A DNA stretch of 64,000 nucleotides from a virus: positions 1 to 64,000 of IMG/VR virus record IMGVR_UViG_2225789004_000003, one strand, 5' to 3'. Below the pieces are notes generated by a model. That model did not search any database, was not told where the DNA came from, and saw only the letters and a program-made list of their open reading frames with translations. Numbering within the stretch: the first letter of the stretch is position 1; every line of letters begins with the position of its first letter. Of this stretch, positions 611 to 16,246 are shown in pieces. Position numbers and translations under genes: made by a program.

Positions 611-985
611 TTAATTTTTATTTTTTGAAAGCAATACACTCAAAAATTCATAATCTGTTAATTTACCCACCCAATGATTTACTATAGTATTCCAATTATA
701 TTTAATGTATTTTATAATTTTGTTTAAATCTCTACTCCTTAATTTAAATTCGCCTACTTTATCAATATTTAATATATCCCAATTTTCATTAGTTTTAAAT
801 ACCAATACACTCATATTAGTTTCATCTACTCTATCGGCTATATCTTGTTGAACTTTCACTCTTAAACAATTATAACATGTTATACCATGAAAACCATTAC
901 CAGTAAAATAAAGATTAACTGGTAAATTAGATTCCTTTCTATGTAAATTAGCCATTTCAAATAGTTCATCTTCAAGCAATTTCAT
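611..985 (-). CDS. Hypothetical protein, paralog family 1 (possibly DUF4160-like)
   Basis: FEMANLHRKESNLPVNLYFTGNGFHG..CLRVKVQQD is nearly identical to ORF 11183..11539. ATG 985 (MKLLED) sits behind AAAGGTGA; the track start is GTG 997. Confidence 0.5.
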   Translation of the reverse strand: MKLLEDELFEMANLHRKESNLPVNLYFTGNGFHGITCYNCLRVKVQQDIADRVDETNMSVLVFKTNENWDILNIDKVGEFKLRSRDLNKIIKYIKYNWNTIVNHWVGKLTDYEFLSVLLSKNKN

Positions 986-1001
986 TTTATTATTCACCTT
1001 T

Positions 1002-1608: not shown

Positions 1609-1615
1609 ATATAAA

Positions 1616-1686: not shown

Positions 1687-1766
1687 ACTTTCAACTTACT
1701 TCATTAACTTTTTAAGTCTATCGCGTATTCCAGTTTCGCCATACTAGCTTTTACATCACATCTTAT

Positions 1767-1931: not shown

Positions 1932-1955
1932 TATAATTTACCAATCTAGTTTTAT

Positions 1956-2026
1956 AGACTTTACTCTGTCTTTATGTTACTATTATAACATTAAAAAAGT
2001 TATAAGTCAATATCTTATAACTTTTT
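1956..2026 (-). promoter_or_regulatory. Early promoter B plus terminator hairpin plus conserved leader
   Basis: Minus strand: TTGACT (2005..2010), 17 nt, TGtTATAAT (1982..1987). Perfect 13-bp hairpin 1994..2026. Leader element at 1956..1971. Confidence 0.7.
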
Positions 2027-2049
2027 ATTTTAAATCAATTATAAATCTT

Positions 2050-2544
2050 CTACCAAAGCATACTTGCAAAATTTTCAACACGATACATGTCAAGTTTTAT
2101 TTCACCATTGTTCCTTCTTTTATAATACCAAATATTTTTTAATCCTGATGCTAACATAACTCTTTGACAGAATGGACATGGTGTATAAGATTTTACATAT
2201 TCTGGCTTTTTAGTCTTTTTATTAATTTTTTCTAAGTTTAATGCAACTATAAACATTGTAGCATCTTTTACAACACTAGCTCCAACTTTAACAATAGCAT
2301 CTACTTCAGGATGTAATGATCTACAAGTCATAGGCTTATCAAGATTTTTAGGATCTGTAACTTTAAAATGACAAATCCCACGCTCTTTACATGATTGACA
2401 ACCTTCTGGTGCTACATTGCTTCCAGTCGATACTACAACACCATTTTTCACTATAACAACTCCATAAGCCTTTTTAAGGCATGTTGACTTTCCAGCAACT
2501 AACTCCGCTACACTGAAAAAATACTCTTTGTCTTTTAACTCCAT
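2050..2544 (-). CDS. Deoxycytidylate (dCMP) deaminase, CDA fold
   Basis: Zinc motifs H-P-E (LHPEVDAI) and PCPFC. Layout is ComEB/dCMP-deaminase-like (GVVIVKNGVVVSTGSN...). Confidence 0.75.
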   Translation of the reverse strand: MELKDKEYFFSVAELVAGKSTCLKKAYGVVIVKNGVVVSTGSNVAPEGCQSCKERGICHFKVTDPKNLDKPMTCRSLHPEVDAIVKVGASVVKDATMFIVALNLEKINKKTKKPEYVKSYTPCPFCQRVMLASGLKNIWYYKRRNNGEIKLDMYRVENFASMLW

Positions 2545-2559
2545 TTTATTTCCCTTTCT

Positions 2560-3117
2560 TTACTTATAAACAATACTATTTTTACCTAACTTTATTTTAC
2601 AATCTATTTGCTTTTTAAATATCTTATATTTTACAAAATTAAAATAATTAATAGATTTTTGTTTATCTTTAACACTACACATATATTTGCAATGATTACA
2701 GTTACTACAATCATTACAATAACTACAACTTATACAGTCATTACAATTTATACAATATTTACAATTTAAACACCCAAAACCACTTTTTACATTTACACAC
2801 TCATAACAATGATAATAAGTTATACATCGTAAACAATAATTACAGTCATTACAGTCTTTACATTCGCCACAGTATTTACAATTTAAACAATCATCACAGT
2901 CACAACAATTTTCACATTTAATACAAGCAATACAAACCTCACAGCAATTACAATCTGAACAATCGTTACAACTCACACATTTAAAACAATTTATACAGTC
3001 AATACAGTCTCTACAATCAACTAATGTATCATTTAAATATTCAGCTTCTTCTTTGGTATACTTATCTTTAGAATATTTATTGTTATTAAAAAATATCCAA
3101 TACTTGTCATTATCCAT
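2560..3117 (-). CDS. Cysteine-array protein 1 (about 38 Cys in 185 aa, almost all in C-x2-C register)
   Basis: DCRDCIDCINCFKCVSCNDCSDCNCC...CNDCSNCNHC. N-terminal YWIFFNNNKYSKDKY is shared with ORF 5255..5716. Confidence 0.8.
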   Translation of the reverse strand: MDNDKYWIFFNNNKYSKDKYTKEEAEYLNDTLVDCRDCIDCINCFKCVSCNDCSDCNCCEVCIACIKCENCCDCDDCLNCKYCGECKDCNDCNYCLRCITYYHCYECVNVKSGFGCLNCKYCINCNDCISCSYCNDCSNCNHCKYMCSVKDKQKSINYFNFVKYKIFKKQIDCKIKLGKNSIVYK

Positions 3118-3307
3118 CTTTTTTATTATCTACCTTATAAAATCCACCTGTTTTAAAAGCTATCCCAATTCTTTCAGGTATTTCAACACGTTCCATAAAA
3201 ATATTACAATCACTGCATACAACCTTAGACTTTTCAAAGTTACTTAAACGAATAACTAACTCTGTTATTTTATTGCACTGTTTACACTTAAATTCAAATA
3301 TTGGCAT
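3110..3307 (-). CDS. FmdB-family zinc-ribbon protein
   Basis: MPIFEFKCKQCN...VVCSDCN: the typical MPxYEYxCxxC...CxxC FmdB signature. Confidence 0.6.
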   Translation of the reverse strand: MPIFEFKCKQCNKITELVIRLSNFEKSKVVCSDCNIFMERVEIPERIGIAFKTGGFYKVDNKKDG

Positions 3308-3837
3308 TATTTTACCTCGAAATAATCATAATTGATATACTTATATGCTTTTCTATCAAAAGTTACTACGGCATCAATTAATTTACTATTAATCATTATA
3401 TTTTTACAATAATTACAAGGCTCTGCAATAAAATTATCATATTTTTTAATTAATGGATTTCCATAAAGATAAAGAATTGAAATACTATCATTATTTAATA
3501 TTTTATCTTTATCATTAGAACTTATTGCTAATAACGCATTTACCTCTGAATGAATTGATGTACAGTATTCATAAGATCCGCCAGCTTCATTATTCAAAAT
3601 CTTATTACATTGTTTACTACATCTTCCGAAATTAAAACCATTTGCTATAATTCTTGAATCATATTTATTTGTTAATTTATTAAACTCAAATAAAGCTATA
3701 ACTGATCCATATTTAACCTTTAAACAGTTTGAATTATTACTACAACTTTTAGCTTGTTGGTAATAAAAATCATTTGTTATTTTATATTCACTACTATTTA
3801 TTATTTTATTAATATTATAAAGTTTGTTATTTATCAT
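3307..3837 (-). CDS. Second CDA-fold (cytidine/deoxycytidylate-type) deaminase, divergent
   Basis: H-S-E (SIHSEVNALLA) and PCNYC zinc motifs at the spacing expected for the CDA fold. Confidence 0.6.
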   Translation of the reverse strand: MINNKLYNINKIINSSEYKITNDFYYQQAKSCSNNSNCLKVKYGSVIALFEFNKLTNKYDSRIIANGFNFGRCSKQCNKILNNEAGGSYEYCTSIHSEVNALLAISSNDKDKILNNDSISILYLYGNPLIKKYDNFIAEPCNYCKNIMINSKLIDAVVTFDRKAYKYINYDYFEVK

Positions 3838-4615
3838 CTTTTAACATTAAGGATTCCAGCTCCTTATTAACTTCCTTATATGTAGCTAAAACATTTTCAA
3901 CGTGTTTAACTAAATTATCTACACCATCCCAACCATCTTTTAATTTAGTGATATTTAAAGCTAAATTAAACACTTTTGCTAAATCTTTATTATTGAGATA
4001 ATTACGATTAACTTCGTTGTTATCAAAATTTATTCCAGTTAATTCTTCAAATTTAATAATATTATTTATTCTACCTTGATTACCAAATCTACTAACTCTA
4101 TCCTGCTCTCTACGTTCAATCTCACGTCTTATATCTTCATAATAATTCTTATGTATTTCATTACGCAATTCAGCTTCATTGTTTCTATAATGTTTATTTG
4201 CTGATCTTAATAAACTGAATATGAATGATTTTGTCATTTCTATAGGTGTTAGTTTTGTAGCACGTTTAACTTCTTTGACTTTTAAATTTTCATCAACTTC
4301 TAACAATCCCCAATTTAATGGAACATCTTCTTTATCCACTAAACCTTTTGGCGTAGCAAAGTAAAAATAATCACAAAACCTAGCAAACTTCTCAGCCTTT
4401 TCTGGATTTTTTATTTCAGATTTAAAGTCTGATTTAGATATTTTAACCTCAATACCTATTGTTAATAATCCTCTACTAGGGTACATACTAAATGCCATAA
4501 CATCTAACCAACCTGAAACATTAGCTCCTGTTCCGTCTGAAACTTCAAAAAATGTTTCATATTCTGGAGTAGAGTATTTATTTAATAAAGCGTTCTTAAT
4601 ATCACTACTATTCAT
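3827..4615 (-). CDS. PD-(D/E)xK nuclease-like protein (MmcB-like)
   Basis: LDVMAF...IGIEVKISKSDFKSE...CDYFYFATPKGL resembles the D..E-x-K core and CD.FWFV motif of MmcB-like proteins, from memory. Confidence 0.4.
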   Translation of the reverse strand: MNSSDIKNALLNKYSTPEYETFFEVSDGTGANVSGWLDVMAFSMYPSRGLLTIGIEVKISKSDFKSEIKNPEKAEKFARFCDYFYFATPKGLVDKEDVPLNWGLLEVDENLKVKEVKRATKLTPIEMTKSFIFSLLRSANKHYRNNEAELRNEIHKNYYEDIRREIERREQDRVSRFGNQGRINNIIKFEELTGINFDNNEVNRNYLNNKDLAKVFNLALNITKLKDGWDGVDNLVKHVENVLATYKEVNKELESLMLKDDK

Positions 4616-4626
4616 ATTTTACCTAC

Positions 4627-5097
4627 TTATTTATTTCTAAGCCTATCTGCTATATTATCAAATATCTTATTAGTCTGATTAATTATCGATTGATACTCAC
4701 TATTTTCCACTGAACAAATTAATTTACTAGCTTTATGACTAGGAATTTTTATAATTACATTAAAATCTACATCAAAAGAATATTTATCAATAAATCTATT
4801 AATATGTGCATTAATTGTAGTATACAATAAATCAATATATTCACTAGGCTTACAAAACTCCAGCATATTTAAATTATTGGAATATTCTATATAAATTTCT
4901 GAAGAAATTTGTTGATCACAAATGATTTTAATATTATCATTATCTACGTCTATAGTATAATACTTATCTGAAATTTTTCGCAGTATAAATAATTTCTCAT
5001 TATATAATTTAATATTATATAATTTTAAACTAAATGACTTATTACAATTTTCAACAATATCAAAATCACCAGTAATATTAATATCAATTGATTTCAT
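4627..5097 (-). CDS. Hypothetical protein
   Basis: Long ORF with AAGGAGAAATA SD upstream. No recognisable motif. Confidence 0.6.
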   Translation of the reverse strand: MKSIDINITGDFDIVENCNKSFSLKLYNIKLYNEKLFILRKISDKYYTIDVDNDNIKIICDQQISSEIYIEYSNNLNMLEFCKPSEYIDLLYTTINAHINRFIDKYSFDVDFNVIIKIPSHKASKLICSVENSEYQSIINQTNKIFDNIADRLRNK

Positions 5098-5126
5098 ATA
5101 TTTCTCCTTAATAATATTTTCACAAA

Positions 5127-5164
5127 AATAAAAACAGTCAACTGTTAAATTGACTGTTTTTATT
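5127..5164 (-). terminator. Rho-independent terminator
   Basis: 12-bp stem AAAAACAGTCAA/TTGACTGTTTTT followed by a U-run on the minus strand. Lies after the Cys-array gene 2. Confidence 0.75.
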
Positions 5165-5254
5165 GGAGAGTAGAAAAATGTTAAAGCATATCAGAGAAAA
5201 CACGGAGAAAAGAGAAAAATATTGAAATACAAAATTATAATATCATACTATAAA

Positions 5255-5716
5255 TTACTTGTCAACACATTTCTTAGTATATTTTCTCTTTTCTTTTAAT
5301 TCAAGTCTAACGTTCTCTTTACCAAAACCACTTCTACAGCCATCACAATCAAAACAATCTTTACAATCTAAACAACTTTTACAATACTGACAATCTGAAC
5401 AGTTATTACAATTTCTACACTCTAAACAGTTTATTGAGTTTTTACACTCCTTACATATAAAACACTTATTACAATCACTACAGTTTATCAAATTAGCACT
5501 TCTGTAGCATTTATTGCAGTTAATACAATCATTACAATCTTCACAATTAATACAGTTCTTACAATTACTTAATGTTAAATATACTTTCTCGGCTAACCTT
5601 TGTTTATATCTATTTTTAGAATACTTAATTCCATTAGTAAAAATCCAATAATCATCATCCTGATCAATCAAATTCTTTTTAGATATTATTGGATCTTTAC
5701 TTTTAATATCTTTCAT
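5255..5716 (-). CDS. Cysteine-array protein 2 (about 24 Cys in 153 aa, C-x2-C register)
   Basis: NCKNCINCEDCNDCINCNKC...CSDCQYCKSCLDCKDCFDCDGC. Shares the YWIFTNGIKYSKNRY N-terminus and SGFG motif with ORF 2560..3117. Confidence 0.8.
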   Translation of the reverse strand: MKDIKSKDPIISKKNLIDQDDDYWIFTNGIKYSKNRYKQRLAEKVYLTLSNCKNCINCEDCNDCINCNKCYRSANLINCSDCNKCFICKECKNSINCLECRNCNNCSDCQYCKSCLDCKDCFDCDGCRSGFGKENVRLELKEKRKYTKKCVDK

Positions 5717-5718
5717 AT

Positions 5719-6027
5719 TTATAATCTTACCAATATATCAGAATATCTATCTAATAAATTTTCTACTACACCATTATGGTTATCAATATTATTCATTACA
5801 TGAATAATAGCTTTAATGTATTCATCATCTGTTACACTAAGTAAACCATTTAAACGCTGTCTTATATTTTTAGCTTCAATTAACATTGGTAATACAAATT
5901 CAGGATAGCCTCCAAATGATAAATAATTTTTAAATTTATTAGTTAATCCTGAATAAATATAACTCTCTAGACTTATAATATCTTTACGTATTTTACTTAT
6001 ATCTCTAGGTTCAATAGTTTTTCTCAT
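5719..6027 (-). CDS. Hypothetical protein
   Basis: First ORF after promoter C and its leader, with AAAAGGGATAAATA SD. Confidence 0.6.
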   Translation of the reverse strand: MRKTIEPRDISKIRKDIISLESYIYSGLTNKFKNYLSFGGYPEFVLPMLIEAKNIRQRLNGLLSVTDDEYIKAIIHVMNNIDNHNGVVENLLDRYSDILVRL

Positions 6028-6048
6028 TATTTATCCCTTTTAGTTTTA

Positions 6049-6127
6049 AGACTTTACTCTGTCTTGTTTGATGTTATTATTATAACATCAAAATTCTTAC
6101 TTGTCAATATGGTTTAAATAAGAATTT
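6049..6127 (-). promoter_or_regulatory. Early promoter C plus hairpin plus conserved leader
   Basis: Minus strand: TTGACA (6102..6107), 17 nt, TGtTATAAT (6079..6084). 9-bp hairpin 6091..6127 encloses the -35. Leader element at 6049..6064. Confidence 0.65.
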
Positions 6128-6150
6128 CTTATTTAATATTTCGCCATATA

Positions 6151-7284
6151 TCACTTTTTAACTTTAATTATTTTATAATCTTTTACATTGTCATTAATAA
6201 AATAATCCTGATAACTTATAATATTTTCTTCATAATTTTTCATAGTTGGATAGTTTTCATATTTAAGTAGCTTAACGACTTTAGGAATACTGCTATACTT
6301 AATACTGAAATATAATTTAATGCCGTTAACCTTCAAAGTTCCAATTGGTAATAACCTAATAAAATTATTATAGTCATCCATAGGATTTTTTATATTTAAT
6401 AAATTACCAACTAAATTATTTATATAATAAGATAATTTAGAATTAGGTTCAAATCGTAAATAATCAGTATACTTTATATCTAAAAATCTTTTAACTTCAT
6501 AATATGTATCATTTTTAATACAATCACTCCGTGTAAGTGTTTTATTAATAGCTGACATAGCAATTTGATTTAATGCTGTCTTACTCTTAATAAACAATAC
6601 ATTATTAAAATCTTTTTTAATAAAATACTCATAATTACCTGGTTCTGAATACTTATTATAAAATAATATAAGATCAATATTAAAATCACCATATAAATAA
6701 GTTTCAATAATAACTGAAGTAATAATATCATTTATATCCAATTTTCGTTTATTAGCAAATTCAACTAAATCAACTAGCTTAACAGTTATAGGAGACCTGC
6801 TTAATTCGGATTTAACTATTTTAATATATTTACTTGTATGAACATTATCAGGTATATCATTTAGATTATTAGTTTTAAGAATTAAATAATCTAAATTTAA
6901 AATATTTAATTCCTTGTTAATATATTTATCTATATTTAAATTTAATGTAGTTACATAATCACTTACATATAAACAATTATAATATGACTCATTAACAATA
7001 TCATCTGAAAAATTAATTACTGTATTACTATTTTTACTGGCTTTTCTTTTAGACTCTTGAATTCTTTCAAACCTTTTATTTTCAAACTCTACTAATTCTC
7101 TATAAATTCTCTGTTTGTTTTCAGTAACTTTTTTATCAATATAATTACAAACAAAACTTTCAAAATCATCTACTGTCGGAAAATATATTTCCTGAATGAG
7201 ATCATAACAGTGTACTAACTTTCGAGAGTATAAATATTTAAACTTTAATTCTTTTAAGTAACGATTTTGACTTTGAAGTTCCAT
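6151..7284 (-). CDS. Hypothetical early protein (377 aa)
   Basis: Long uninterrupted ORF. No motif recognised. Confidence 0.6.
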   Translation of the reverse strand: MELQSQNRYLKELKFKYLYSRKLVHCYDLIQEIYFPTVDDFESFVCNYIDKKVTENKQRIYRELVEFENKRFERIQESKRKASKNSNTVINFSDDIVNESYYNCLYVSDYVTTLNLNIDKYINKELNILNLDYLILKTNNLNDIPDNVHTSKYIKIVKSELSRSPITVKLVDLVEFANKRKLDINDIITSVIIETYLYGDFNIDLILFYNKYSEPGNYEYFIKKDFNNVLFIKSKTALNQIAMSAINKTLTRSDCIKNDTYYEVKRFLDIKYTDYLRFEPNSKLSYYINNLVGNLLNIKNPMDDYNNFIRLLPIGTLKVNGIKLYFSIKYSSIPKVVKLLKYENYPTMKNYEENIISYQDYFINDNVKDYKIIKVKK

Positions 7285-7295: not shown

Positions 7296-9416
7296 TTAAG
7301 TAGTTTTTAAAAGTTCTAATGATCTTTCGATTAATAACTGTTCTTTTAATTGATCATCTTCTAACTGTTTAACTCTATCTACTTGATCAATATCACACTG
7401 GTCAACGGCTGTTAACTGATTAAACATATTATCAATTAGCTGATCACTTAATCTATATTTTTTCATTGAAATATAACTTTTTAGTTTTTGACTTGTTAAG
7501 TCTTTAATAGATGATATACCTAATATAATTGATTCATCTTCAGTAATTGGATTTTGATTTTTATATTCTTCAGTTATAACAAGGTTATCTAATTCATCTA
7601 ATTTACATCTTATTTCCTTTAATGAATTTAACCATATGTTTTCTTGTTCTTCATTAAATTTATGTTTTACAATATTATCCTGAACATGATTTCTATATCT
7701 ACTACCTTCTTTAGTATATAAAAAATTGCTATCTTGAAAATTTATTTGAATTTCAGCTATTTCAGACTTACTTAATCTATTAAGTCCATTTTCAAATATA
7801 TCTATTTCAGCATTAATGACATTATCTGATATATTTACAGATTCTTCAATTAAATTAATAACTTCTACATTTTTATCCATACAATCTCCTGAATTAATTA
7901 TTTCTGATAAACTATCAGAATTGGTAGTCAAAGTATCTTTTGAAACATTATTATCTGAATAGTCTTTTAAGTTATTTAAACCTTGTAAAGCGATTATTTC
8001 ACTTAAACTATATAACTTATATAAGCCATTATCATCTGAATAATTATTGCTTGGATCATCTAGATCGTTTAAATCATTTAAGCCATCTGAATCAAATAAG
8101 CTATTTGAGATATTTAAATCATTAACTTTAGAATCTTTAAAGTCTTTAGAACCTACTGAAGAATTTGTTATTTCTGATAAATTTTTATTGTCTTTTATTG
8201 GAGTATTATCCGTACAAAACATTTTATAAAATGTATTTATATTAGACTCATTAACATTAATTTTTGATATATCAATAGTTGTCTGTTTTAATTTGTTTAA
8301 TTTAAAATTAAAATCTTTATTCTTTTTAACCTTCTCTGCCTTTATAGCATTATTATCTGAATACTCTTTATAATCCTTTGAATTAGTTATTACTGATTTA
8401 CCATTAAGTCTACATTTAAAAATTCTATTTTCCCGTCTAATAGTATTAATCCAATAAGTATCTAATTTTTTTTTATTTGTAAAAATTGTGTTTTTAACTG
8501 AAATAAAATTATGTGCTTTTTTCTCTTTAATATAATTATTTTCAGGTGTATCAGTATTATATTTTAATTCATTTAATATTTTTAAATGATTATTATTGCA
8601 AAGTCTGCCTTTATTATTTTTAATCTTATAAGCAATATATTCCTGTTCTTTAACCTTTTTAACATTTTGATAATCGATATTATTAATGTTATATCCCATT
8701 ATACATCTAAGTCTTTGTTTAATTGTATTGCCGTATTCATCTTTAAACTGAATAACATGCCTATTATCACTATATTTTTTAAATATTTTAGCATATTTAC
8801 TATTTTTATAAGAATTAAATAATTCATTACCAATATAATAATCTAATATTTCCTTAAAATCTTTTAAAGAAATCTGATAAGACATTTTATCAATATCTTT
8901 AATATAATCTTTAAATTTTTTCCATAGATCTGATTTAGTTATGCCATAAATAACTTCATCCTTATTAAAGTTAACTAAGTGTTTACCTAATTCATTATGA
9001 ATATACTCTGAAACATATTTAAATTCAGATTTAGCTATTAATAATGTTAAATATTCTGGAATTAAAGGTCTTACTTTGATTATATTATGATATTCGCTTT
9101 CTTCATTTAATAAAAATGTTTCATTTAAGAGATTATTATAACCAATACCTATTAAATCTTTAGCTTTAAACTTAAAGTCCTTTATATGATTATTTTTAAA
9201 GGGTTTAAAGCATATATTACTATTATCAAACTGATAAGAATTATCAATTATGCAATATTCACTAATATTATTTAATAATAATTTATTTAAATCAGTTCTA
9301 AATAATAATTTAGGATTATAATGATCTTCGCCTAAATTATTTAATACTGAATAATATTTATTATCTAAAATATCTTTATCAACTTTTAAAAATTTTGTAG
9401 ATTTAACATTATACAT
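7296..9416 (-). CDS. Hypothetical large early protein (about 706 aa) with an acidic D/N/S-rich central region
   Basis: Start moved to ATG 9416 (MYNVKS) behind AAGGAAAT. The upstream part of the track ORF overlaps a palindromic operator-like site. Confidence 0.6.
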   Translation of the reverse strand: MYNVKSTKFLKVDKDILDNKYYSVLNNLGEDHYNPKLLFRTDLNKLLLNNISEYCIIDNSYQFDNSNICFKPFKNNHIKDFKFKAKDLIGIGYNNLLNETFLLNEESEYHNIIKVRPLIPEYLTLLIAKSEFKYVSEYIHNELGKHLVNFNKDEVIYGITKSDLWKKFKDYIKDIDKMSYQISLKDFKEILDYYIGNELFNSYKNSKYAKIFKKYSDNRHVIQFKDEYGNTIKQRLRCIMGYNINNIDYQNVKKVKEQEYIAYKIKNNKGRLCNNNHLKILNELKYNTDTPENNYIKEKKAHNFISVKNTIFTNKKKLDTYWINTIRRENRIFKCRLNGKSVITNSKDYKEYSDNNAIKAEKVKKNKDFNFKLNKLKQTTIDISKINVNESNINTFYKMFCTDNTPIKDNKNLSEITNSSVGSKDFKDSKVNDLNISNSLFDSDGLNDLNDLDDPSNNYSDDNGLYKLYSLSEIIALQGLNNLKDYSDNNVSKDTLTTNSDSLSEIINSGDCMDKNVEVINLIEESVNISDNVINAEIDIFENGLNRLSKSEIAEIQINFQDSNFLYTKEGSRYRNHVQDNIVKHKFNEEQENIWLNSLKEIRCKLDELDNLVITEEYKNQNPITEDESIILGISSIKDLTSQKLKSYISMKKYRLSDQLIDNMFNQLTAVDQCDIDQVDRVKQLEDDQLKEQLLIERSLELLKTT

Positions 9417-9455
9417 AATTGATATTTCCTTATAAATATAAAAAACTTTCATCGT

Positions 9456-9474
9456 AAATTTTGTGACAAAATTT
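9456..9474. promoter_or_regulatory. Perfect 19-nt palindrome AAATTTTGT-G-ACAAAATTT (operator-like)
   Basis: Read directly. Lies 40-58 nt upstream of ATG 9416. A second copy of the core is at 9603..9615. Confidence 0.5.
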
Positions 9475-9602
9475 TCATTGCTTATTATCTTAAAGTAAGC
9501 CTTTAATATAAAAACCAATTAATAACGATAAAAGTCTTTTTTGTTAATTATATTTAATTATTTTAATACAGTTTTTATATTAAATTTCTAAATAAACGAA
9601 AT

Positions 9603-9615
9603 TTTTGTCACAAAA
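9603..9615. promoter_or_regulatory. Second copy of the palindrome core TTTTGT-C-ACAAAA
   Basis: 13-nt perfect palindrome, 144 bp centre to centre from the first. Confidence 0.45.
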
Positions 9616-9862
9616 TTATTATATTTATTTTACCATTATTTACATAAAATGTCAATACTTTTTATAAATAATTTTCCAAATTGCCATTATATTTTATTTT
9701 ATTAATTATATTAATAATAAATTCTTTTATTATTAATTTTTAAATAATATATAATATTTAATAACATATAAGATCTAATAAAATATAGTGTACTTTTTAA
9801 GATAAATCTTTTTAAATTTCTTCAGGAATTCTTTGGATTCAAAGGTTTAAGACATAAGAACC

Positions 9863-9977
9863 TTTTTGTCCATGTTAACAACGCCACATTACTATACTTA
9901 AAGGATTCTTCAGGATCTCAAAATTAAATCAATTTTTATATAATTATTCGTTTACAAAATTTTAATATGGACAAAAA
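9863..9977. repeat. Inverted 11-mers TTTTTGTCCAT (9863..9873) and ATGGACAAAAA (9967..9977)
   Basis: Exact reverse complements. Related direct half-sites TTTCGTCCAT 10051..10060 and TTTTGTCCT 10129..10137. Confidence 0.5.
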
Positions 9978-10169
9978 GATATTGACCTATTTTTAGCTAT
10001 ATTTTGACTGCATTAAATTAATTATTCAGGTTTAAAATCACAGTATAGTATTTCGTCCATTTAATAAAAATATCAATAGGTTCTAAAACTTATGCAGATT
10101 ATTTGCTCTTAAAATACCAAATATAATATTTTGTCCTTTTATTGATTTTAAATTTATTTTCAGAAAGTA

Positions 10170-10234
10170 TTGACAGTTTATATTTTTGATGTTATAATAA
10201 TAACATAAAGATTACAAAAAGACAGAGACAGTCT
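10170..10234 (+). promoter_or_regulatory. Early promoter D plus conserved leader (plus-strand operon)
   Basis: TTGACA 10170..10175, 17 nt, TGtTATAAT (10193..10198). Leader AGACAGAGACAGTCT 10220..10234, then ATAAAACTAGAAGG SD. Confidence 0.7.
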
Positions 10235-10256
10235 ATAAAACTAGAAGGATAACAAA

Positions 10257-11081
10257 ATGAACGTATATGAAATGCTTACAAATAAAATATTAGAACAATT
10301 GGATAATAACATAATACCTTGGCAAAAGTCTTGGGTTGGTAGAAAGAATACAGTTATTAATTATGTAACTAGAAAAGAATATAAAGGTATTAATCAGTTA
10401 CTTCTTCCAATGGCTGGCGAGTATCTAACATTTAAACAATGTGCAAGTCTTGGCGGTAAAGTTAAAAAAGGTGAAAAAGCCAGTATGATCGTTTTCTTTA
10501 AATGGATTGAGAAGAAAAATGAGAAGGATGAAGTTACTAATAGTTATCCTGTATTAAATTGGTATAATGTATTTCACATTTCACAATGTGAAGGTATTGA
10601 GTCTAAAATGGAATCTATGGAAGTCAATGATAATGATCCTATTGAAGTAGCTGAAAACATTGTTAGTAACTATATCAGTAGAAGCAATGTTAAGCTAAAC
10701 CTTAGTGAATTCAATGAAGCTAGTTACTCACCATCAACTGATACTGTTACTGTTCCTAAAATTGGACTATTCACTAGCAGTGAAGAACATTATTCAACAA
10801 TGTTTCACGAACTTGGACATTCAACTGGTCATGAAAGCAGACTAAACAGACTTAAAAACAAAACAACTAGTAAATTAAGCGGTGATTATAGCTTTGAAGA
10901 ATTAGTTGCTGAAATAACTGCAGTAAATCTTATAAATAAATCTGGAATTGACTCTGAAAAGGTTTTCAACAATTCAGTAGCTTACATTCAAGGTTGGAGT
11001 AAATTTATCAGAAGTAATACGAAAGCTATGATTCAAGCAAGCAGTCTTGCTGAAAAAGCTACTGATTGTATATTAGTATAG
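10257..11081 (+). CDS. ardC: ArdC-like antirestriction protein (ssDNA-binding N-domain plus zincin metalloprotease)
   Basis: N-terminal IPWQKSW...KGINQLLL (DUF1738/ArdC-N type) and HELGH in FHELGHSTGHESRLNR. Confidence 0.8.
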   Translation: MNVYEMLTNKILEQLDNNIIPWQKSWVGRKNTVINYVTRKEYKGINQLLLPMAGEYLTFKQCASLGGKVKKGEKASMIVFFKWIEKKNEKDEVTNSYPVLNWYNVFHISQCEGIESKMESMEVNDNDPIEVAENIVSNYISRSNVKLNLSEFNEASYSPSTDTVTVPKIGLFTSSEEHYSTMFHELGHSTGHESRLNRLKNKTTSKLSGDYSFEELVAEITAVNLINKSGIDSEKVFNNSVAYIQGWSKFIRSNTKAMIQASSLAEKATDCILV

Positions 11082-11182: not shown

Positions 11183-11539
11183 GTGAAATTTTTATTTGAA
11201 ATGGCTAATTTGCATAAACAGTATTCTAATTTACCAGTTAATTTGTATTTTACTGGCAATGGCTATAGGAATATAAAAAATCATAATTGTTTAAGAGTTA
11301 AAGTTCAACAAGATAAAAGTAATAGTATGCACCCAGAAAATTTGAGTTCCATAATGTTTATGACTGGAGATAATTGGGATATATTAAATTATAGAAAAGT
11401 AGGTAAGTTTAAAATATCAAATTCAGATCTTAATACAATTATTGATTATATTAAAGACAATTGGGATATGATAGTAAAACATTGGATAGGAGAATTACCA
11501 GATAGAGACTTTTTAATTAATTTACCACCAGTTAAATAA
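11183..11539 (+). CDS. Hypothetical protein, paralog family 1 (close paralog of 611..985)
   Basis: GTG start behind AAAGGAG. FEMANLHKQYSNLPVNLYFTGNGY..CLRVKVQQD and IIDYIKDNWDMIVKHWIGEL match ORF 611..985. Confidence 0.55.
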   Translation: MKFLFEMANLHKQYSNLPVNLYFTGNGYRNIKNHNCLRVKVQQDKSNSMHPENLSSIMFMTGDNWDILNYRKVGKFKISNSDLNTIIDYIKDNWDMIVKHWIGELPDRDFLINLPPVK

Positions 11540-11691: not shown

Positions 11692-12585
11692 ATGGAGATA
11701 CAAAGTTTATCAATAGCAGTTCCAGGTAAAAAGTGTGTAAATAATTGTAAGTTTTGTGTGTCAAAAATGCACAATAGTAATTATCCAGATTATATAAGTT
11801 GGGATGAGTTTAATGTTGAAAAATGCAGTAAGTCTGAACATGATTACATTGGCAAATTAGAATTTGTTAGAGATAATAATTGTCATATAGTAATGTTAAC
11901 TGGCAGTATAGAACCTATGCAAAATACAAATTTTCTTAGAAGATTCGCATTTATGAATAACCAACTAAAAAATCCATTTAAATGGATTGAAATGCAATCC
12001 TCTGGATTATTTTTAAACGATCCACAAAAATTAGAATTTTTAAAAGATGAAGTAAAAGTAAAAACTATATCTCTATCAATATCGAGTCTTAATAATGATG
12101 TCAATAATGAAATTATTGGTTTTCCTGAAAATCATAGAATTGATATTGCGGATGTATGTAGTAAAATAAAAGATTTTGGTTTTAATTTACGATTAAGTAT
12201 TAATTTGAATAAAGATTTTGAAACTCGTTATGGCTTTGATATAGATAATTTTATGGACGAATTACTTTATTTGAAACCTGATCAAATAACATTTAGAAAA
12301 TTATATATTTCATCTAGTATTGAAACTCCAGAAAATACATGGATATATGAAAATTATTATTCAGATGAATACTATAATACTTTAGTTAGTTATATACAAT
12401 CAGGAAAATTAATTGATATAATACCGTATGATAGATCTAAATATTCATTTCATGGTGTAGGTGTTATGATAAATGATAATTGTATGAATAAGCCTATTAT
12501 TGAGGGTAACTATGAATATATGATTCTTAGAGAAAATTGTAAATTATACTCTAAATGGGATGATCCTGCATCATTAATATTTTAA
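11692..12585 (+). CDS. Radical SAM domain protein, function unknown
   Basis: CVNNCKFC (C-x3-C-x2-C) at residues 15-22 and a glycine-rich SAM motif analogue MLTGSIEP. AAGGAG SD. Confidence 0.75.
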   Translation: MEIQSLSIAVPGKKCVNNCKFCVSKMHNSNYPDYISWDEFNVEKCSKSEHDYIGKLEFVRDNNCHIVMLTGSIEPMQNTNFLRRFAFMNNQLKNPFKWIEMQSSGLFLNDPQKLEFLKDEVKVKTISLSISSLNNDVNNEIIGFPENHRIDIADVCSKIKDFGFNLRLSINLNKDFETRYGFDIDNFMDELLYLKPDQITFRKLYISSSIETPENTWIYENYYSDEYYNTLVSYIQSGKLIDIIPYDRSKYSFHGVGVMINDNCMNKPIIEGNYEYMILRENCKLYSKWDDPASLIF

Positions 12586-12695: not shown

Positions 12696-12860
12696 ATGAA
12701 AAATCAAAAAGTAAATAAATATGGTAAAATGACAGAATTTAAATATGAGGGAATTTCCACTTTTAGGAAAAATGGACATTTATTTTACAAAATAAATGAT
12801 GTAAAACAAAATATAAATTTAAAACAGTTATCTTCTAATTTATATGAATGTGAATATTAA
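12696..12860 (+). CDS. Small ORF (54 aa, MKNQKVNKYGKMTEFKYEG...)
   Basis: First ORF after the promoter E leader, with AAAAGAGAG SD. Below the track cutoff. Confidence 0.35.
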   Translation: MKNQKVNKYGKMTEFKYEGISTFRKNGHLFYKINDVKQNINLKQLSSNLYECEY

Positions 12861-12876
12861 TATAGGAGAAAGTAAA

Positions 12877-13953
12877 ATGAAAAAATATACTAGCATGTTA
12901 AATGTATATAATAAGGACTTAAAAGCATTAACTGAAAAGCATTATGGATTGCCTTGTGTATGTCTTAATAAAATACATGGCATGAATGTTCAAATAGAAT
13001 TTATACCTAAGTCTGATTCTAATAAAACTAATGATTTTGATTTAGTTAATATATATGGACGTGAAGATTTAATAACAGCAGAAAATGATGAATATGGAAT
13101 TTTTAAATTTATAACAACTTTAAATTTTACAAATAGTTTTATACCATATATTCATAATCTAATTGAGGTAATAAAAGAAAAAGAATTACTAAAAGATGAA
13201 GTTGTTGAAAGTCTAAGTATATTCGGAGAATTTTTTGGTGGAGTATATGATCATAAAAATGTTCCAAAATGTGAAACATGTCAAAAAATACAAAGAGGTG
13301 TTCATTATAGTCCTTGCAATAATATTATACTTTTTGATATTTATATTAAATCTAATAAAAGAAATTGTTATTTAGATTGGATAAATATAGAAAGGTTATT
13401 TAGTGAAGCCAATATAAATTATCCTGATATAATATTTAGCGGAACATTGCAAGAGTGTATAGACTTTGATCCAGTATTTTTAGATCCAACTTACAAAAAG
13501 TATAATTTACCTGCAATAAAAGATAATTATTCAGAAGGTATAGTTATTCGTCCAATTAAAGAATCTAATTTTGGATATAATTTTGGAGGAGATAGGCTAA
13601 TATTAAAAAATAAATACAAAAAATTTGATGAAAGACAAAAACAACAAAATAGAGAAGCTAATCGAATAGCTAGAGAATTAGAAAGTCAAATACACTTAAA
13701 AGAATTTGATATAGCACTAGAGTATATTAATACTAACAGACTTGATAACTGCTTCTCACATTTAAATATAGTTAAAGATATTAAAAACTTTCCAGCACTA
13801 ATGAAAGAATTTAATATTGATGTATTGAAAGATTTTAAACTTGATAATGATATATTACATTTAACTAAAGATGAAAATAAATTATTGAATAAATTTATAA
13901 ACAAAAAAGCAAGTGAATTAGTAAGACAATATCTAATGGAAGTTGAGGTTTAA
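12877..13953 (+). CDS. RNA ligase, Rnl2 (T4 gp24.1) family
   Basis: KYTSMLNVYN, the nucleotidyl-transferase lysine in NKIHGMN, then IFGEFFGG, ILFDIY, EGIVIRP and ILKNKYKKFDERQK parallel T4 Rnl2 motifs I-V. Start moved to ATG 12877 behind AGGAG. Confidence 0.75.
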   Translation: MKKYTSMLNVYNKDLKALTEKHYGLPCVCLNKIHGMNVQIEFIPKSDSNKTNDFDLVNIYGREDLITAENDEYGIFKFITTLNFTNSFIPYIHNLIEVIKEKELLKDEVVESLSIFGEFFGGVYDHKNVPKCETCQKIQRGVHYSPCNNIILFDIYIKSNKRNCYLDWINIERLFSEANINYPDIIFSGTLQECIDFDPVFLDPTYKKYNLPAIKDNYSEGIVIRPIKESNFGYNFGGDRLILKNKYKKFDERQKQQNREANRIARELESQIHLKEFDIALEYINTNRLDNCFSHLNIVKDIKNFPALMKEFNIDVLKDFKLDNDILHLTKDENKLLNKFINKKASELVRQYLMEVEV

Positions 13954-14266: not shown

Positions 14267-16246
14267 ATGAATAATACGATAAAAGAATTAGAAAATAAAA
14301 TTAAATTATACTCGGATCAATATTATCAAGGTGAGTCGGAAATATCTGATATAGAATTTGATAATTTAATTGATCAGTTAAGAGAATTAGATCCTAATAA
14401 TGGGATTTTAAGTAAAACTGGATGGGGGTATAATCCTGTTGAGTATGGCAAACCTGTGCCACATCTATTTAAATTACAAGGCTTAGATAAAGTAAAATGT
14501 GAAAAAAGTACTATTATTAATTATGATTATGTTACACCTAAATATGATGGTGCAAGTGTTGAAGTTATATATAAAAATAATAAATTTTATCAAGCCATAT
14601 CAAGAGGTAATGGAACTGAAGGGTTTGATGTTACAAACAAGTTAAAGTATATAGTACCTAATAATTTATATATAGATGATACTACCAATAATAAATCCCC
14701 TGTGGATGAAATTTTTAGATATACAAGTAATGAAATGATTTCTATATCTGGAGAATTTATAATGGATAAAATTATAAAAAATAAAGAGCAGTATTGTAAA
14801 GCTCCTTCGGCTAGAAATCTAGCTACTGGATTTTTAAATCGAAAAAAATTCAATAAAGATGAATGTAAAGATTATAGTTTTATTCCTTATAGACTAAATG
14901 GTATCGTAGTAAATTCAGATGATGAATTAAATTATGAACATTTTGAATCTCTCTGTTATAATCATTATAAATCTGAAATAATTGAGTATCTACATAATCA
15001 CTTTGTTGATAATGGTGAAGATTGTTATGATTATTTTCCTACGATTGAAAAAGAATATATTTCCGATTTTGAAGGATTTTTTCAGAGTACTAACGTAGAA
15101 GAATATTTTGAATGTGATGGAATTGTAGTTGGCACTGATAAGTTGGATTATAAAATTAAAGATAATAAAATTTACTTTAAGTATAATGATATAGCATTAA
15201 AAGTTACAAAAGATACTGCTGAAGTAGAAGTTGATAAAATTACATGGCAACTATCACGAACTGGATTATTAGTACCAGTTGTTGAGATAAAAAATCCTGT
15301 ATTTTTACAAGGTGCAACCATTTCAAGAGTAACGGCTTTTAATGCTAAATATGTTAAGGATAATAGAATTGATAAAGGTGCTATTTTAAAAATTAGCAGA
15401 AGCGGTGATGTTATACCGACAATACTTGAAGTAATTAAACCATGTGATACATTTGAAACTAATTTAGCATGTCCAGTATGTAATCAAAAAGCTGAATGGC
15501 ATAGTGTTAATTTAGTTTGTAAAAATGAAAATTGTAAAAACAAAAGTTATAGTGATATATATAGATGGATTGAATTGATCGGTGCTGAAAAAGGTGCTTC
15601 TGAAAACATTATAAATGCTATCATAGAATATGGTAAATTAACCTGTATAAGTGATATTTATAATATTATGGAATACAATTATAATTGGGATAAATTATTA
15701 AAAGACGTTCCATGTTTTGGAAAGTCATCGATTGAATTAACTAAAAAAGTATGGTCAAATTTATTTAGAGAAATAGAAGTTCATGAATTTTTATCAGCTT
15801 TAAATATCGCAGGTATAGGTTTAAAAACTGCAGAAGTTTTAGCTAAAGAGTGTGATATTTATAATAAGGTTAAAGATGTTTTTGGAAAGGCTAAATTAGA
15901 TGATATAACAAATGCAAATGGTATTGGTGAGTCTGTAAAGTCGATATTAATTAAAAATCATAATTATATCAGAAGTGTATTTATGGTTTGTAAAGTTATC
16001 GATATTAAAAAGAAAGAAGAAAGTAAGGATTTAATAAAAGTAACATTAACAGGTAAATTAGAAAACTATGGTAGAAATGAACTTTTAGAAAAGTTTAAAG
16101 ATAAAATAATTGAAACAAGTATTAATGAATGTGATTATTTAGTTACTAATACTCCTGATAGCGGAAGTAGTAAAAATGTAAAAGCTCAAAAGTTAGGCAA
16201 ACAAATAATAACTGAAAATAAGTTATTAGAAATGTTAGGAGAGTAA
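14267..16246 (+). CDS. ligA: NAD-dependent DNA ligase
   Basis: Ia-domain signature YSDQYYQGESEISDIEFDNL, adenylation KYDG, Cys4 zinc finger CPVC...CKNENC, HhH region and C-terminal BRCT-like ITLTGKL...YLVTN...SSKNVKAQKLG. Confidence 0.85.
   Translation: MNNTIKELENKIKLYSDQYYQGESEISDIEFDNLIDQLRELDPNNGILSKTGWGYNPVEYGKPVPHLFKLQGLDKVKCEKSTIINYDYVTPKYDGASVEVIYKNNKFYQAISRGNGTEGFDVTNKLKYIVPNNLYIDDTTNNKSPVDEIFRYTSNEMISISGEFIMDKIIKNKEQYCKAPSARNLATGFLNRKKFNKDECKDYSFIPYRLNGIVVNSDDELNYEHFESLCYNHYKSEIIEYLHNHFVDNGEDCYDYFPTIEKEYISDFEGFFQSTNVEEYFECDGIVVGTDKLDYKIKDNKIYFKYNDIALKVTKDTAEVEVDKITWQLSRTGLLVPVVEIKNPVFLQGATISRVTAFNAKYVKDNRIDKGAILKISRSGDVIPTILEVIKPCDTFETNLACPVCNQKAEWHSVNLVCKNENCKNKSYSDIYRWIELIGAEKGASENIINAIIEYGKLTCISDIYNIMEYNYNWDKLLKDVPCFGKSSIELTKKVWSNLFREIEVHEFLSALNIAGIGLKTAEVLAKECDIYNKVKDVFGKAKLDDITNANGIGESVKSILIKNHNYIRSVFMVCKVIDIKKKEESKDLIKVTLTGKLENYGRNELLEKFKDKIIETSINECDYLVTNTPDSGSSKNVKAQKLGKQIITENKLLEMLGE

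Follow-up and report, generated by a model that had tools for sequence, protein, structure and literature searches.

Paired Cysteine-Triplet Proteins of PHROG 15341 in a Viral Nucleotide-Metabolism Region: Candidates for Thin Beta-Solenoid Rods

Introduction

Several phage proteins combine a short-period repeat array with a following domain of unknown function, phrog_20532, here termed IGSR-CGCF. This domain stands behind pentapeptide repeats in EBPR siphovirus 1 gp3 and behind hexapeptide-type repeats in Ruminococcus phage phiRM10 gp34, Clostridium phage Amboise (WAK79366) and Paenibacillus phage Pd_22F. Such pentapeptide and hexapeptide (left-handed beta-helix) proteins have repeats of 5 (A[D/N]LXX) or 6 ([LIV]GxxAx) residues and are encoded in early or accessory genome regions. 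The antifreeze protein TmAFP of the beetle Tenebrio molitor (PDB 1EZG) is a right-handed beta-helix with a fixed period of 12-residue coils, in which cysteine occurs at every sixth residue, the core is built from disulfide-bonded Cys together with Ser and Ala, and a T-C-T motif forms the ice-binding face; the protein is secreted. CXXC zinc fingers and zinc ribbons or knuckles (CFP1, MLL, the DnaJ cysteine-rich domain) contain 4–8 cysteines, adopt defined folds that are not repetitive and show Gly/Pro signatures, the zinc knuckle being recognisable by a Pro at x1 and a Gly that follows the second Cys. In metallothioneins CxC, CC and CxxC spacings occur side by side, with neither a strict register nor a cap domain, and the CXXC-rich Giardia VSPs are secreted or membrane-anchored.

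The window analysed here, a stretch of 64,000 nucleotides (positions 1 to 64,000 of IMGVR_UViG_2225789004_000003), encodes two proteins, A and B, that resemble each of these systems in part. Both belong to PHROG 15341, an entry that names the family without explaining its function. Like the phrog_20532 beta-helix proteins, members of this family carry a short-period array and occur in early or accessory regions, whereas their repeat is 3 residues long and contains Cys, their N-terminal module is different, and A and B lack the C-terminal domain. With TmAFP the family would share an inward small residue at every third position, preceded by N/D/G-rich positions, but the phage arrays place Cys at every third residue, show no super-period or signal peptide and occur in an intracellular context. 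CxxC spacing and high cysteine density are common to the zinc fingers and ribbons; the phage arrays differ in their 20–40 cysteines, open-ended triplets, near absence of Pro and low Gly content. Very high cysteine content, CxxC spacing and a plausible metal-binding capacity are shared with metallothioneins and VSP-type proteins, in contrast to which the phage register is strictly conserved; sequence models of these proteins do not match the phage arrays.

Results and Discussion

A (2560..3117, minus strand) has 185 residues with 38 Cys (20.5 %), and B (5255..5716, minus strand) has 153 residues with 24 Cys (15.7 %). Among the remaining 55 window ORFs that reach 100 residues, the median cysteine fraction is 0.8 % and the next highest value 4.3 %. 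A gap of 3 accounts for 29 of the 37 Cys–Cys gaps in A and 20 of the 23 in B. After 20,000 shuffles of each protein such gaps averaged 4.8 (maximum 14) and 2.6 (maximum 9), respectively. The counts given in the initial annotation, about 38 and 24 cysteines falling at every third residue, were thus borne out, and the array string quoted there, DCIDCINCFKCVSCNDCSDCNCCEVCIACIKC, is found in A.

Its description of the arrays as uninterrupted held for the period of 3 but not for continuity. In A an N-terminal module of residues 1–34 (KYWIFFNNNKYSKDKYTKEEAEYLNDTLVD, 3016..3117) is followed by a first C-x-x array (residues 35–100, 2818..3015), where all 22 consecutive register positions from 35 to 98 are Cys over 64 residues. 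The in-register break at residues 101–115 (YYHCYECVNVKSGFG, 2773..2817) contains the motif SGFG, with Y, V and G at register positions 101, 110 and 113. Residues 116–147 form a second array (2677..2772), running in register from 116 to 143, and a basic tail with a net charge of +9 and a predicted helix at 152–176 completes the protein (residues 148–185, 2563..2676). Extra cysteines outside the register occur at 58, 72 and 147. B carries its N-terminal module at residues 20–51 (DDDYWIFTNGIKYSKNRYKQRLAEKVYLTLSN, 5564..5659), which aligns without gaps to that of A, and an array at residues 52–127 (5336..5563) with Cys at 23 of 26 register positions. The substitutes are S73, L76 and S94, and the longest perfect run comprises 11 Cys (31 residues). 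SGFG and a basic tail follow at residues 128–153 (5258..5335), the net charge being +6 for this span and +5 for the final 24 residues.

In a BLASTP comparison A and B are 39 % identical over 119 ungapped residues (E 8e-22), and SGFG is aligned between them, 77 residues past the first Cys in each. The two proteins are collinear, diverged paralogues by sequence, in agreement with the common N-terminal module and SGFG motif noted previously.

The two genes are co-oriented and tightly packed. A 65-residue gene (3110..3307, minus strand) encoding an FmdB-like Zn_ribbon_8 protein (Pfam PF09723, E 3.7e-9), a possible partner of A, shares its last 8 nt, stop codon included, with the start of A, as read from the sequence. 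A Zn_ribbon_8 gene also lies directly upstream of the family member at a second locus (L012). Upstream of B the intergenic gap is 2 nt (3 nt between end coordinates). As pattern matches to the consensus, two promoter-like sites were noted on the minus strand, both with a TG extension: TTGACA-17-TATAAT (12/12, 6107–6079), upstream of the unit formed by 5719..6027 and B, and TTGACA-17-TATTAT (11/12, 5265–5237), heading a unit that runs from 4627..5097 via A to 2050..2544. Downstream of B, a 14-bp hairpin with a T run behind it (5124..5161, minus strand; RNAfold −14.3 kcal/mol) resembles a terminator or attenuator and is absent from the output of the terminator scan. Around A and B lie a dUTPase gene and two dCMP-deaminase-like genes, which agrees with the reported placement among nucleotide-metabolism genes. 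From these signals A and B are likely early genes, as had been proposed.

A and B match phrog_15341 over the N-terminal module and array with E values of 2.2e-28 and 1.7e-17, and all relatives tested match it as well. The view that no described phage family is involved therefore stands only in part. The family is catalogued and large, with 741 cluster representatives at E≤1e-10 and 2465 at E≤1e-3 in a profile search; it is annotated "unknown function" without structure or description, and our search found no Pfam or NCBIfam model, solved structure or paper on it. It is an unstudied family in which no protein has been characterised. CP21_192 is an annotated member in a named, isolated phage, Campylobacter phage CP21, and the family is also present in prophages of Helicobacter (Helicobacter bilis), Clostridia, Enterococcus and further hosts. 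Several paralogues per genome are the rule. At 15 loci the surrounding genes serve replication, recombination, nucleotide metabolism and anti-restriction; they vary widely, with no conserved neighbour.

In about 200 relatives the arrays adhere strictly to the triplet register. Cys–Cys gaps in multiples of three (3, 3815 cases; 6, 209; 9, 105; 12, 19) far outnumber gaps of 4 (21), 5 (13), 7 (15) and 8 (9). Measured from the first Cys, the conserved Pro in the C-terminal domain lies 1 mod 3 residues away in 34 of 35 proteins, with arrays that span 40–139 residues and no favoured number of triplets. Where Cys is replaced in register (n=153), the substitutes are S (83), L (24), I (13), G (6), M (6), A (5) and H (1). 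With Ser, Leu and Ile prevailing and His seen once, the position behaves like a buried core residue and unlike a metal ligand. Position x1 is mostly T, S, K, I, E, N or V, and x2 mostly N (26 %), D (23 %), Y, G or S. Pro occupies only 5 of about 7800 positions (~0.06 %) and Gly about 1.4 % of x1. No super-period of x1 or x2 was seen at 4 or 6 triplets, so that distinct coil faces are not visible.

With an alignment of 118 sequences the AlphaFold confidence for A rose from 42 to 68. This is only a moderate value, and the predictor can over-regularise repeat proteins. The N-terminal module is predicted as beta-beta-alpha (E6–8, E14–16, H22–29) with a pLDDT of 85–92, and N13, A25 and L32 are conserved to at least 90 % in the alignment. 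Residues 51–99 show a beta-bridge at every third residue (pLDDT 62–84), while the break and the second array are modelled with pLDDT <50 and 48–55, respectively. Foldseek gave no significant match in the PDB; its weak matches are beta-helix or solenoid proteins. The arrays of A and B probably fold as thin, Cys-cored rods. The solenoid suggested in the initial annotation from the 3-residue period fits the AlphaFold pattern, the strict register, the core-like substitutes and the use of the array where other phages have a beta-helix.

The latter point emerges from the architecture of the family: a cap-like beta-beta-alpha module of about 30 residues, a run of C-x-(N/D) triplets of unrestricted length and an optional C-terminal domain. 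This domain may be a MazG-like dNTP pyrophosphohydrolase, a gp1.7-like kinase domain, a phosphoesterase, a SAM lyase or IGSR-CGCF. The fusion partners comprise dGTP_diPhyd_N, DUF3310 (gp1.7-like kinase PHROGs), Metallophos (fused in P0115, an adjacent gene in CP21), S-AdoMet lyase and Peptidase_M78. At least 35 family members have IGSR-CGCF behind their CxxC array; under a stricter pattern for the array plus this domain, 19 of 154 matched. At one further locus (L001) a Hexapep protein is encoded directly upstream of a family member.

We consider the array module most plausibly a non-catalytic, Cys-cored beta-solenoid rod or adaptor of early DNA- and nucleotide-metabolism regions, with a probability of roughly 0.45. 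The array would form a very narrow beta-solenoid with one triplet per coil side, in which Cys points inward to the core, x1 outward and x2 (N/D/G) lies at the corner; N, D and G favour left-handed turn conformations. With all coil sides equivalent, such a rod could lengthen or shorten by single triplets. The N-terminal module, immediately before the array, may act as cap or folding nucleus. In other phages the C-terminal end of the rod would bear enzymes or the IGSR-CGCF domain, and the rod would take the place of pentapeptide or hexapeptide beta-helices. A and B, which lack the C-terminal domains on which the adaptor argument rests, would work as stand-alone proteins in the cytoplasm during early infection, among genes of DNA and nucleotide metabolism and anti-restriction, and may bind a partner by scaffolding or mimicry rather than by catalysis.

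The main competitor, about half as probable in our estimate, assigns the array the function of binding many Zn, Fe or Cu ions, either in one M(Cys)4 site per four triplets or in polynuclear clusters, as a metal store or chaperone for phage zinc enzymes or as a metal/redox sink perturbing the host. It is compatible with a solenoid and differs from the rod or adaptor reading in making metal capture the function. The cysteine content and CxxC, the commonest metal-chelating spacing in biology, speak for it, as do the translational coupling of A to the Zn_ribbon_8 protein with the same pair at L012, a Lar-like zinc-ribbon gene upstream in a Clostridiales prophage, Zn-dependent deaminase-like genes on both sides of A, and CXXC-type zinc fingers as the next PDB profile matches (E 0.02–0.4). 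A and B also lack a hydrophobic N-terminal signal segment and are therefore likely cytoplasmic, as judged from their sequences. However, His replaces Cys in register only once, the Pro and Gly of the zinc-knuckle signature are missing, and the zinc-finger, ferredoxin and metallothionein models of Pfam and NCBIfam all fail to match, even with the threshold relaxed to E 10. A strict register with a dedicated cap is unexpected for a flexible metallothionein-like chelator, and the module is fused to unrelated enzymes. A DNA-directed factor is distinctly less likely: a CXXC-type zinc-finger-like domain with a basic DNA-binding tail, or an acidic DNA-mimic rod that, like pentapeptide-repeat proteins, inhibits a host topoisomerase, nuclease or restriction system. 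The strongly basic tails of A and B, weak PDB matches to CXXC zinc fingers (CFP1, MLL, TET), mildly acidic arrays (−5.9 per 100 residues), relatives adjoining Lar, methyltransferase and topoisomerase genes, the S-AdoMet lyase fusion and the architectural interchangeability with pentapeptide repeats point in this direction. Yet these PDB matches reflect composition and do not reach significance, the family's tails are acidic about as often as basic (45 positive, 31 negative), the acidity of the arrays is modest, and PADLOC and anti-defence models gave no matches.

A disulfide-laddered beta-helix of the TmAFP type, with intra- and inter-coil disulfides and acting outside the reducing cytoplasm or after oxidation, appears improbable. 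Among PDB sequences the family profile matches TmAFP best (E 8e-4), in register, with the Cys columns landing alternately on TmAFP Cys and inward Ser/Ala; A and B singly match it again (E 0.2–0.4), and Ser is the chief substitute for Cys. An hhalign probability of 0.6 % and the lack of a Pfam AFP match nevertheless mark the resemblance as compositional, so that the likeness to beetle antifreeze proteins drawn earlier is an analogy without support for homology. Moreover, the T-C-T motif and the 12-residue period are missing, the N-termini are hydrophilic with no apparent signal-peptide-like segment, and the gene context is intracellular DNA metabolism. Still more doubtful is a RiPP precursor with the N-terminal module as leader and the array as core, thioether-crosslinked by a radical SAM enzyme such as that at 11692..12585, which the initial annotation had itself ranked as the less likely role. 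The layout does recall a conserved leader before a hypervariable Cys-rich region, and radical SAM genes occur near family members, at 6–9 kb in the window, at a distance of two genes in CP21 and at 2 kb in L012. These three enzymes are, however, unrelated beyond the cluster motif (one MoaA/viperin-like, one RlmN/Cfr-like, that of the window unclassified), and the C-terminal half of the window enzyme contains just two Cys and hence no SPASM-type auxiliary cluster region. No radical SAM gene was found within 8–10 kb at any of the 7 other Pfam-annotated loci (L001–L005, L013, L014). Members bearing a fused enzyme or a folded C-terminal domain reach 200–300 residues, the module is sometimes internal or tandem, and the register holds right up to the C-terminal domain, all of which leaves the substrate proposal unsupported. 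The reading of the periodic TGT codons as a DNA repeat with incidental ORFs, suggested by weak 9/18/27/36-nt tandem-repeat signals within both ORFs, is effectively refuted by conservation. The repeat copies match only 66–86 % while Cys is kept, with TGT in 58 of the 62 Cys codons of A and B, indicating periodicity maintained at the protein level and no recent DNA tandem repeat. Hundreds of diverged relatives retain frame, N-terminal module and fused domains, and the genes around A and B are tightly packed, with the 8-nt overlap and 2-nt gap described above. A and B are real genes.

Under the rod or adaptor reading, the stack of thiols may also bind Zn or Fe, but metal capture is not taken as the primary function. 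A cytoplasmic protein with 16–21 % free thiols almost certainly binds metal, and for this reason a structural rod and a metal binder are perhaps inseparable. A further point against this reading is the bulk of the Leu and Ile residues found in register, which is considerable for a core of the narrow beetle antifreeze type.

Results and Discussion

Both cysteine-rich reading frames reported in the initial annotation are present on the minus strand, A at 2560..3117 (185 aa) and B at 5255..5716 (153 aa), and the cysteine counts given there are right. A contains 38 Cys, with 29 of the 37 successive gaps equal to 3; for B the corresponding values are 24 Cys and 20 of 23 gaps. In 20,000 shuffles of each protein the number of gaps of 3 never exceeded 14 (A) or 9 (B), and the remaining 55 ORFs of 100 aa or more in the window have a median Cys content of 0.8%. 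The description of the arrays as uninterrupted does not hold literally, but all interruptions keep the three-residue register. In A the register is filled by Cys throughout residues 35–98, positions 101, 110 and 113 are occupied by Y, V and G, and the array is found again from 116 to 143. B carries S, L and S instead of Cys at register positions 73, 76 and 94. The DNA of both genes forms a weak tandem repeat only, with 66–86% matches, indicating that the periodicity is kept at the protein level.

The gapless alignment of A with B covers 119 residues at 39% identity (E 8e-22) and shows the two to be true paralogues, as had been proposed. The alignment spans the N-module, a segment directly preceding the array and proposed as its cap, continues through the array and ends at the SGFG motif. 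The latter is indeed common to both proteins, 77 residues past the first Cys in each, and is confined to A, B and a few relatives.

Contrary to the initial impression that no described family is involved, both proteins match the profile of PHROG 15341 (E 2.2e-28 for A and 1.7e-17 for B). This entry is annotated as of unknown function. Pfam and NCBIfam returned zero families for A and B even at E<=10, and PADLOC gave no match for A, B, their relatives and two neighbours. Searches turned up neither a curated model nor a structure for the family, and the open-access papers and bioRxiv preprints covered contained no publication on it. Daugavet et al. (PMC7379824, bioRxiv 10.64898/2026.06.07.730663) describe cysteine-rich repeats that are eukaryotic as well as Gly- and Pro-rich and were ruled out as a different repeat; phage 'CXXC' papers concern DnaJ-type CXXCXGXG motifs, not this array.

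An exhaustive profile search yielded 2465 cluster representatives at E<=1e-3, of which 741 passed E<=1e-10. Clustered at 50%, the family thus numbers hundreds to thousands of members, from phages of Campylobacterota, Firmicutes and other phyla. Word-indexed searches recovered only 6, later 53 relatives, and a single match when the C-terminal domain was used. With A as tblastn query, the N-module alone was found, in a Helicobacter prophage, since the low-complexity filter masks the array. Campylobacter phages were reached by Foldseek against viral models and by blastn ('distant' mode), and CP21_192 of Campylobacter phage CP21 proved to be a clear family member. CP21 contains three members, two of them adjacent (172 and 284 aa; L019:3989-4507 and 4572-5426) and one elsewhere (L008:5972-6397). 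The lone gene adjoins the phosphoesterase gene CP21_191, and a MoaA/viperin-like radical SAM gene is located two genes away. Multiple paralogues per genome are usual, with 2, 2, 4 and 3 in the loci L001–L004. Members also reside in prophages of Helicobacter bilis, Clostridiales Family XIII, Oscillospiraceae and Enterococcus and in one of a Hyphomicrobiales MAG.

Several members carry wrong names. UniProt H6SUK4 from Campylobacter virus IBB35 is labelled 'CaiB/BaiF family protein', and P0167 and P0183 from Clostridiales Family XIII bacterium PM5-7 are named 'TPP-dependent indolepyruvate ferredoxin oxidoreductase alpha subunit'. These names probably arose from compositional matches, and a curated model would mend them. 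Very large proteins were also detected (P0007, 1426 aa; P0008, 795 aa; P0011, 975 aa; P0026, 836 aa; P0108, 593 aa), each with 5–12 separate CxxC arrays interleaved with other domains. Their arrays are introduced by a shorter D.DGN[IV]NC or NSHCWNC, not by the phage N-module, and the proteins may originate from giant viruses or eukaryotes.

Three alignments showed that A and B share the architecture of their relatives, in which the N-module is followed directly by the C-x-x array. The pattern YW.D/F.N.NKW/Y...Y..E.A...S..L..C was present in 105 of 154 sequences and always ended at the first Cys of the array. The module comprises about 30 residues with the consensus YWVD.NGNKW....YT.EEA...S.TL.NC and is predicted by AlphaFold as beta-beta-alpha (pLDDT 85–92); its profile found no relative among PDB sequences. 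Within the triplets C-x1-x2, x1 is chiefly T, S, K, I, E, N, V or R, while x2 is N (26%) or D (23%), followed by Y, G and S. Pro is essentially absent. Across the family the Cys–Cys gaps are 3 (3815 cases), 6 (209), 9 (105) and 12 (19), compared to a total of 58 for gaps of 4, 5, 7 and 8. Where Cys is replaced in register, S is the commonest substitute (83 cases), followed by L (24), I (13), G and M (6 each), A (5) and a single H.

Residues 70–79 of B (window 5480..5509) display the variant C-x-x-S-x-x-L-x-N-C, in which two successive Cys are replaced by Ser and then Leu. This nine-residue in-register variant is recurrent, being found also in relatives such as P0146, and many of the family gaps of 9 are due to it. 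It may mark a specific structural irregularity of the rod discussed below.

The C-terminal parts vary. Some members end with the array or, like A and B, with a short tail; in others the array is fused to the IGSR-CGCF domain (phrog_20532) or to other domains. These include dGTP_diPhyd_N (MazG-like), DUF3310 (T7 gp1.7-like kinase PHROGs), Metallophos, S-AdoMet lyase, Peptidase_M78, DUF3848 and LRR_5. Some relatives possess two cap-plus-array units, and in some the unit is internal. A family-wide basic tail was ruled out, as 45 tails are positively and 31 negatively charged. In the 35 proteins with the IGSR-CGCF domain the array comprises 40–139 residues and may hold any number of triplets. The distance from the first Cys to the conserved Pro of this domain equals 1 modulo 3 in 34 of them. 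From cap to C-terminal domain, no preference was seen for a triplet number modulo 4, 5 or 6. A super-period of 12 or 18 residues in x1/x2 is absent; there is only a weak lag-3-triplet signal (z about 3).

The phrog_20532 domain provides the strongest comparative clue to the fold. Outside the family it comes after pentapeptide repeats in EBPR siphovirus 1 gp3, while in phiRM10 gp34, Clostridium phage Amboise and Paenibacillus phage Pd_22F it stands behind hexapeptide-type repeats (tblastn E 1e-5 to 6e-7). These two repeat types are the classic sequences that form beta-helices of short period. In these proteins and in many relatives of A and B the repeat array is located N-terminal to phrog_20532, and the CxxC array thus fills a slot otherwise taken by a beta-solenoid; A and B themselves are devoid of that domain. 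The repeats as such differ, since the array has a period of 3 in comparison to A(D/N)LXX and [LIV]GxxAx, and A and B match neither Pfam model. We tentatively assign the catalogued yet uncharacterized family to the class of short-period beta-solenoid repeat modules.

The sequence properties can be accommodated in such a coil. The preference for N, D and G at x2 would fit coil corners, the Ser, Leu and Ile substitutes would fit a buried Cys position, and the granularity of one triplet would be compatible with a coil in which all sides are equivalent. AlphaFold was uninformative with 8 sequences (pLDDT 42). With 118 sequences the prediction was moderately confident (mean pLDDT 68) and contained one beta-bridge per third residue within residues 51–99 of A (pLDDT 62–84). 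Foldseek found nothing significant in the PDB, the weak matches being beta-helix proteins, and in BFVD only members of the family.

The phrog_20532 domain comprises about 75 aa with the pattern IGSR...CGCF.GT..EF..V..HG and is of unknown function. In different phages it is carried on pentapeptide, hexapeptide and CxxC triplet repeats, with sites at L010:775-1446, L009:586-1404, L006:2764-3204 and L007:2473-3210 as well as in relatives such as P0029 (residues 112–189). It may be the effector carried by these rods.

The initial annotation had pointed to beetle antifreeze proteins. When PDB sequences were searched with A and B and with the profiles of the family and the N-module, no match was significant other than TmAFP, which is compositional. 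The family profile has 1EZG as its best hit (hmmsearch, E 8e-4, heavy compositional bias), in which the Cys columns fall on alternating Cys and Ser/Ala of the beta-helix core. TmAFP and the family array both place a small inward-facing residue at each third position, with Ser as the main Cys substitute in the family. In contrast to the 12-residue TCTxSxxCxxAx of TmAFP, the array unit is 3 residues, without a lag-4-triplet signal or T-C-T motif. Homology was ruled out by an hhalign probability of 0.6% and no Pfam match at E<=10, so that the resemblance is one of analogy. A ladder of disulfides as in the antifreeze protein is unlikely in a protein that is probably cytoplasmic; the N-termini MDNDKYW... 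and MKDIKSKDP..., as read directly from the sequence, lack a hydrophobic signal-like segment.

Metal binding as the primary function is the main alternative to a structural role. So many cytoplasmic thiols very likely bind metal, and this is compatible with the solenoid. His almost never substitutes for Cys, knuckle signatures are missing and the register is strict, all of which disfavours a metallothionein- or zinc-finger-like protein. Models of zinc ribbons, CXXC zinc fingers, 4Fe-4S ferredoxins and metallothioneins gave zero Pfam or NCBIfam matches for A and B at E<=10, and CXXC zinc fingers in the PDB were matched weakly by the family profile (E 0.02–0.4). With Pro nearly absent, the ferredoxin motif CxxCxxCxxxCP is impossible in the arrays. 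A bolder proposal, which we consider improbable, is a new class of cytoplasmic metalloproteins. There, the core of the beta-solenoid would be a continuous stack of Cys4 sites about 4.8 Å apart, each holding Zn, Fe or Cu, forming a protein-encased metal–thiolate wire of tunable length. Phages would use it for metal or redox storage or, attached to nucleotide-metabolism enzymes, as a handle that conducts electrons or senses redox state. A new type of metal–thiolate protein is treated as a minority possibility.

The arrays had further been suggested, as a less likely option, to be a substrate of the radical SAM enzyme at 11692..12585 (+). The corresponding explanation as a RiPP precursor with its maturase fails. 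Radical SAM genes lie near three members, the one in the window included, and are mutually unrelated. Most loci are without one: none is present in seven other Pfam-annotated loci or among the neighbours scanned for a conserved partner. The window enzyme exhibits only the PF04055 core (E 5e-8), without NCBIfam or PHROG match; it has no SPASM or twitch region and two Cys in its C-terminal half. Moreover, fusion of the arrays to enzymes and to phrog_20532, and the internal and tandem modules, are unlike a short leader–core peptide. Binding or mimicry of DNA is conceivable as a role but finds no support.

Across 15 loci the neighbours are replication, recombination, nucleotide-metabolism and anti-restriction genes, including ThyX, MazG-like, RusA, RecT, SSB, ligases, helicases, topoisomerase, DprA, methyltransferases and Lar. 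A conserved-neighbour search over these loci revealed no single partner that is kept. Two links recur, namely Zn_ribbon_8 directly upstream of a family member in the window and in L012, and a calcineurin-like phosphoesterase fused in P0115 and adjacent in CP21. From the early DNA- and nucleotide-metabolism neighbourhoods and these links we infer that the module is a non-catalytic rod or adaptor for early intracellular functions. Should the triplet array prove to be a Cys-cored solenoid, no beta-solenoid repeat of shorter period would be known, and phage early proteins would have a third interchangeable rod module beside the pentapeptide and hexapeptide repeats. Metal in the core would make the protein a metalloprotein of a new kind, with relevance to phage takeover biology and protein design. 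CP21_192 offers a testable handle, as it belongs to a named, isolated Campylobacter phage and lies beside a gene for the phosphoesterase that is fused to the module elsewhere.

The window itself is of phage origin, with portal and terminase genes, and megablast and tblastn found no close relative among GenBank phages. The genes from 94 to 9518 are all on the minus strand and tightly packed. The start codon of A overlaps the stop of an upstream 65-aa Zn_ribbon_8 gene by 8 nt, and B starts 2 nt past the stop codon of its upstream gene, whose last base is 5719. Near-perfect sigma-70-type promoter-like sequences with TG extension were located at 6107-6079 (-), upstream of 5719..6027 plus B, and at 5265-5237 (-), upstream of the unit running through A. 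Downstream of B the sequence contains a 14-bp hairpin, which is followed by a T run. Together with the neighbours, these sites, which are pattern matches and not proof, would fit early transcription by host RNA polymerase. The nucleotide-metabolism setting noted previously was confirmed by a dUTPase and two dCMP-deaminase-like genes; a gene for an MmcB-like nuclease is a further neighbour.

Both dCMP/cytidine-deaminase-like genes, at 2050..2544 (-) and 3307..3837 (-), flank A, and the former is also weakly similar to ComEB and to an anti-phage dCTP deaminase model. Two deaminases in one phage are unusual and may be linked to a modified-base or dNTP-pool strategy. A 740-aa ORF at 7296..9518 (-), for which Pfam gave no match, has a middle part that is long, D/N/S-rich and of low complexity. 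Between the divergent early arms, the intergenic stretch 9519..10256 belongs to the lowest-GC part of the window (~19% GC, 8001-10000). It contains strong promoter-like sites both ways (9655-9627 (-) and 10170-10198 (+)), the GC skew changes sign there, and it may be a control region or origin. The site at 10170-10198 (+), by pattern match a perfect TTGACA-17-TATAAT, precedes a gene at 10257..11081 (+) for an ArdC-like anti-restriction protein with ArdcN and zincin-like metallopeptidase domains. A paralogous gene pair, 611..997 (-) and 11183..11539 (+), is distributed over the two arms (61% identity over 108 aa, E 2e-49; no Pfam or NCBIfam match). The strand opposite to A and B carries, besides ArdC and the radical SAM gene, an Rnl2-like RNA ligase at 12844..13953 (+) and the adjoining NAD-dependent DNA ligase at 14267..16246 (+), a pair that suggests tRNA or nucleic-acid repair against host defence.
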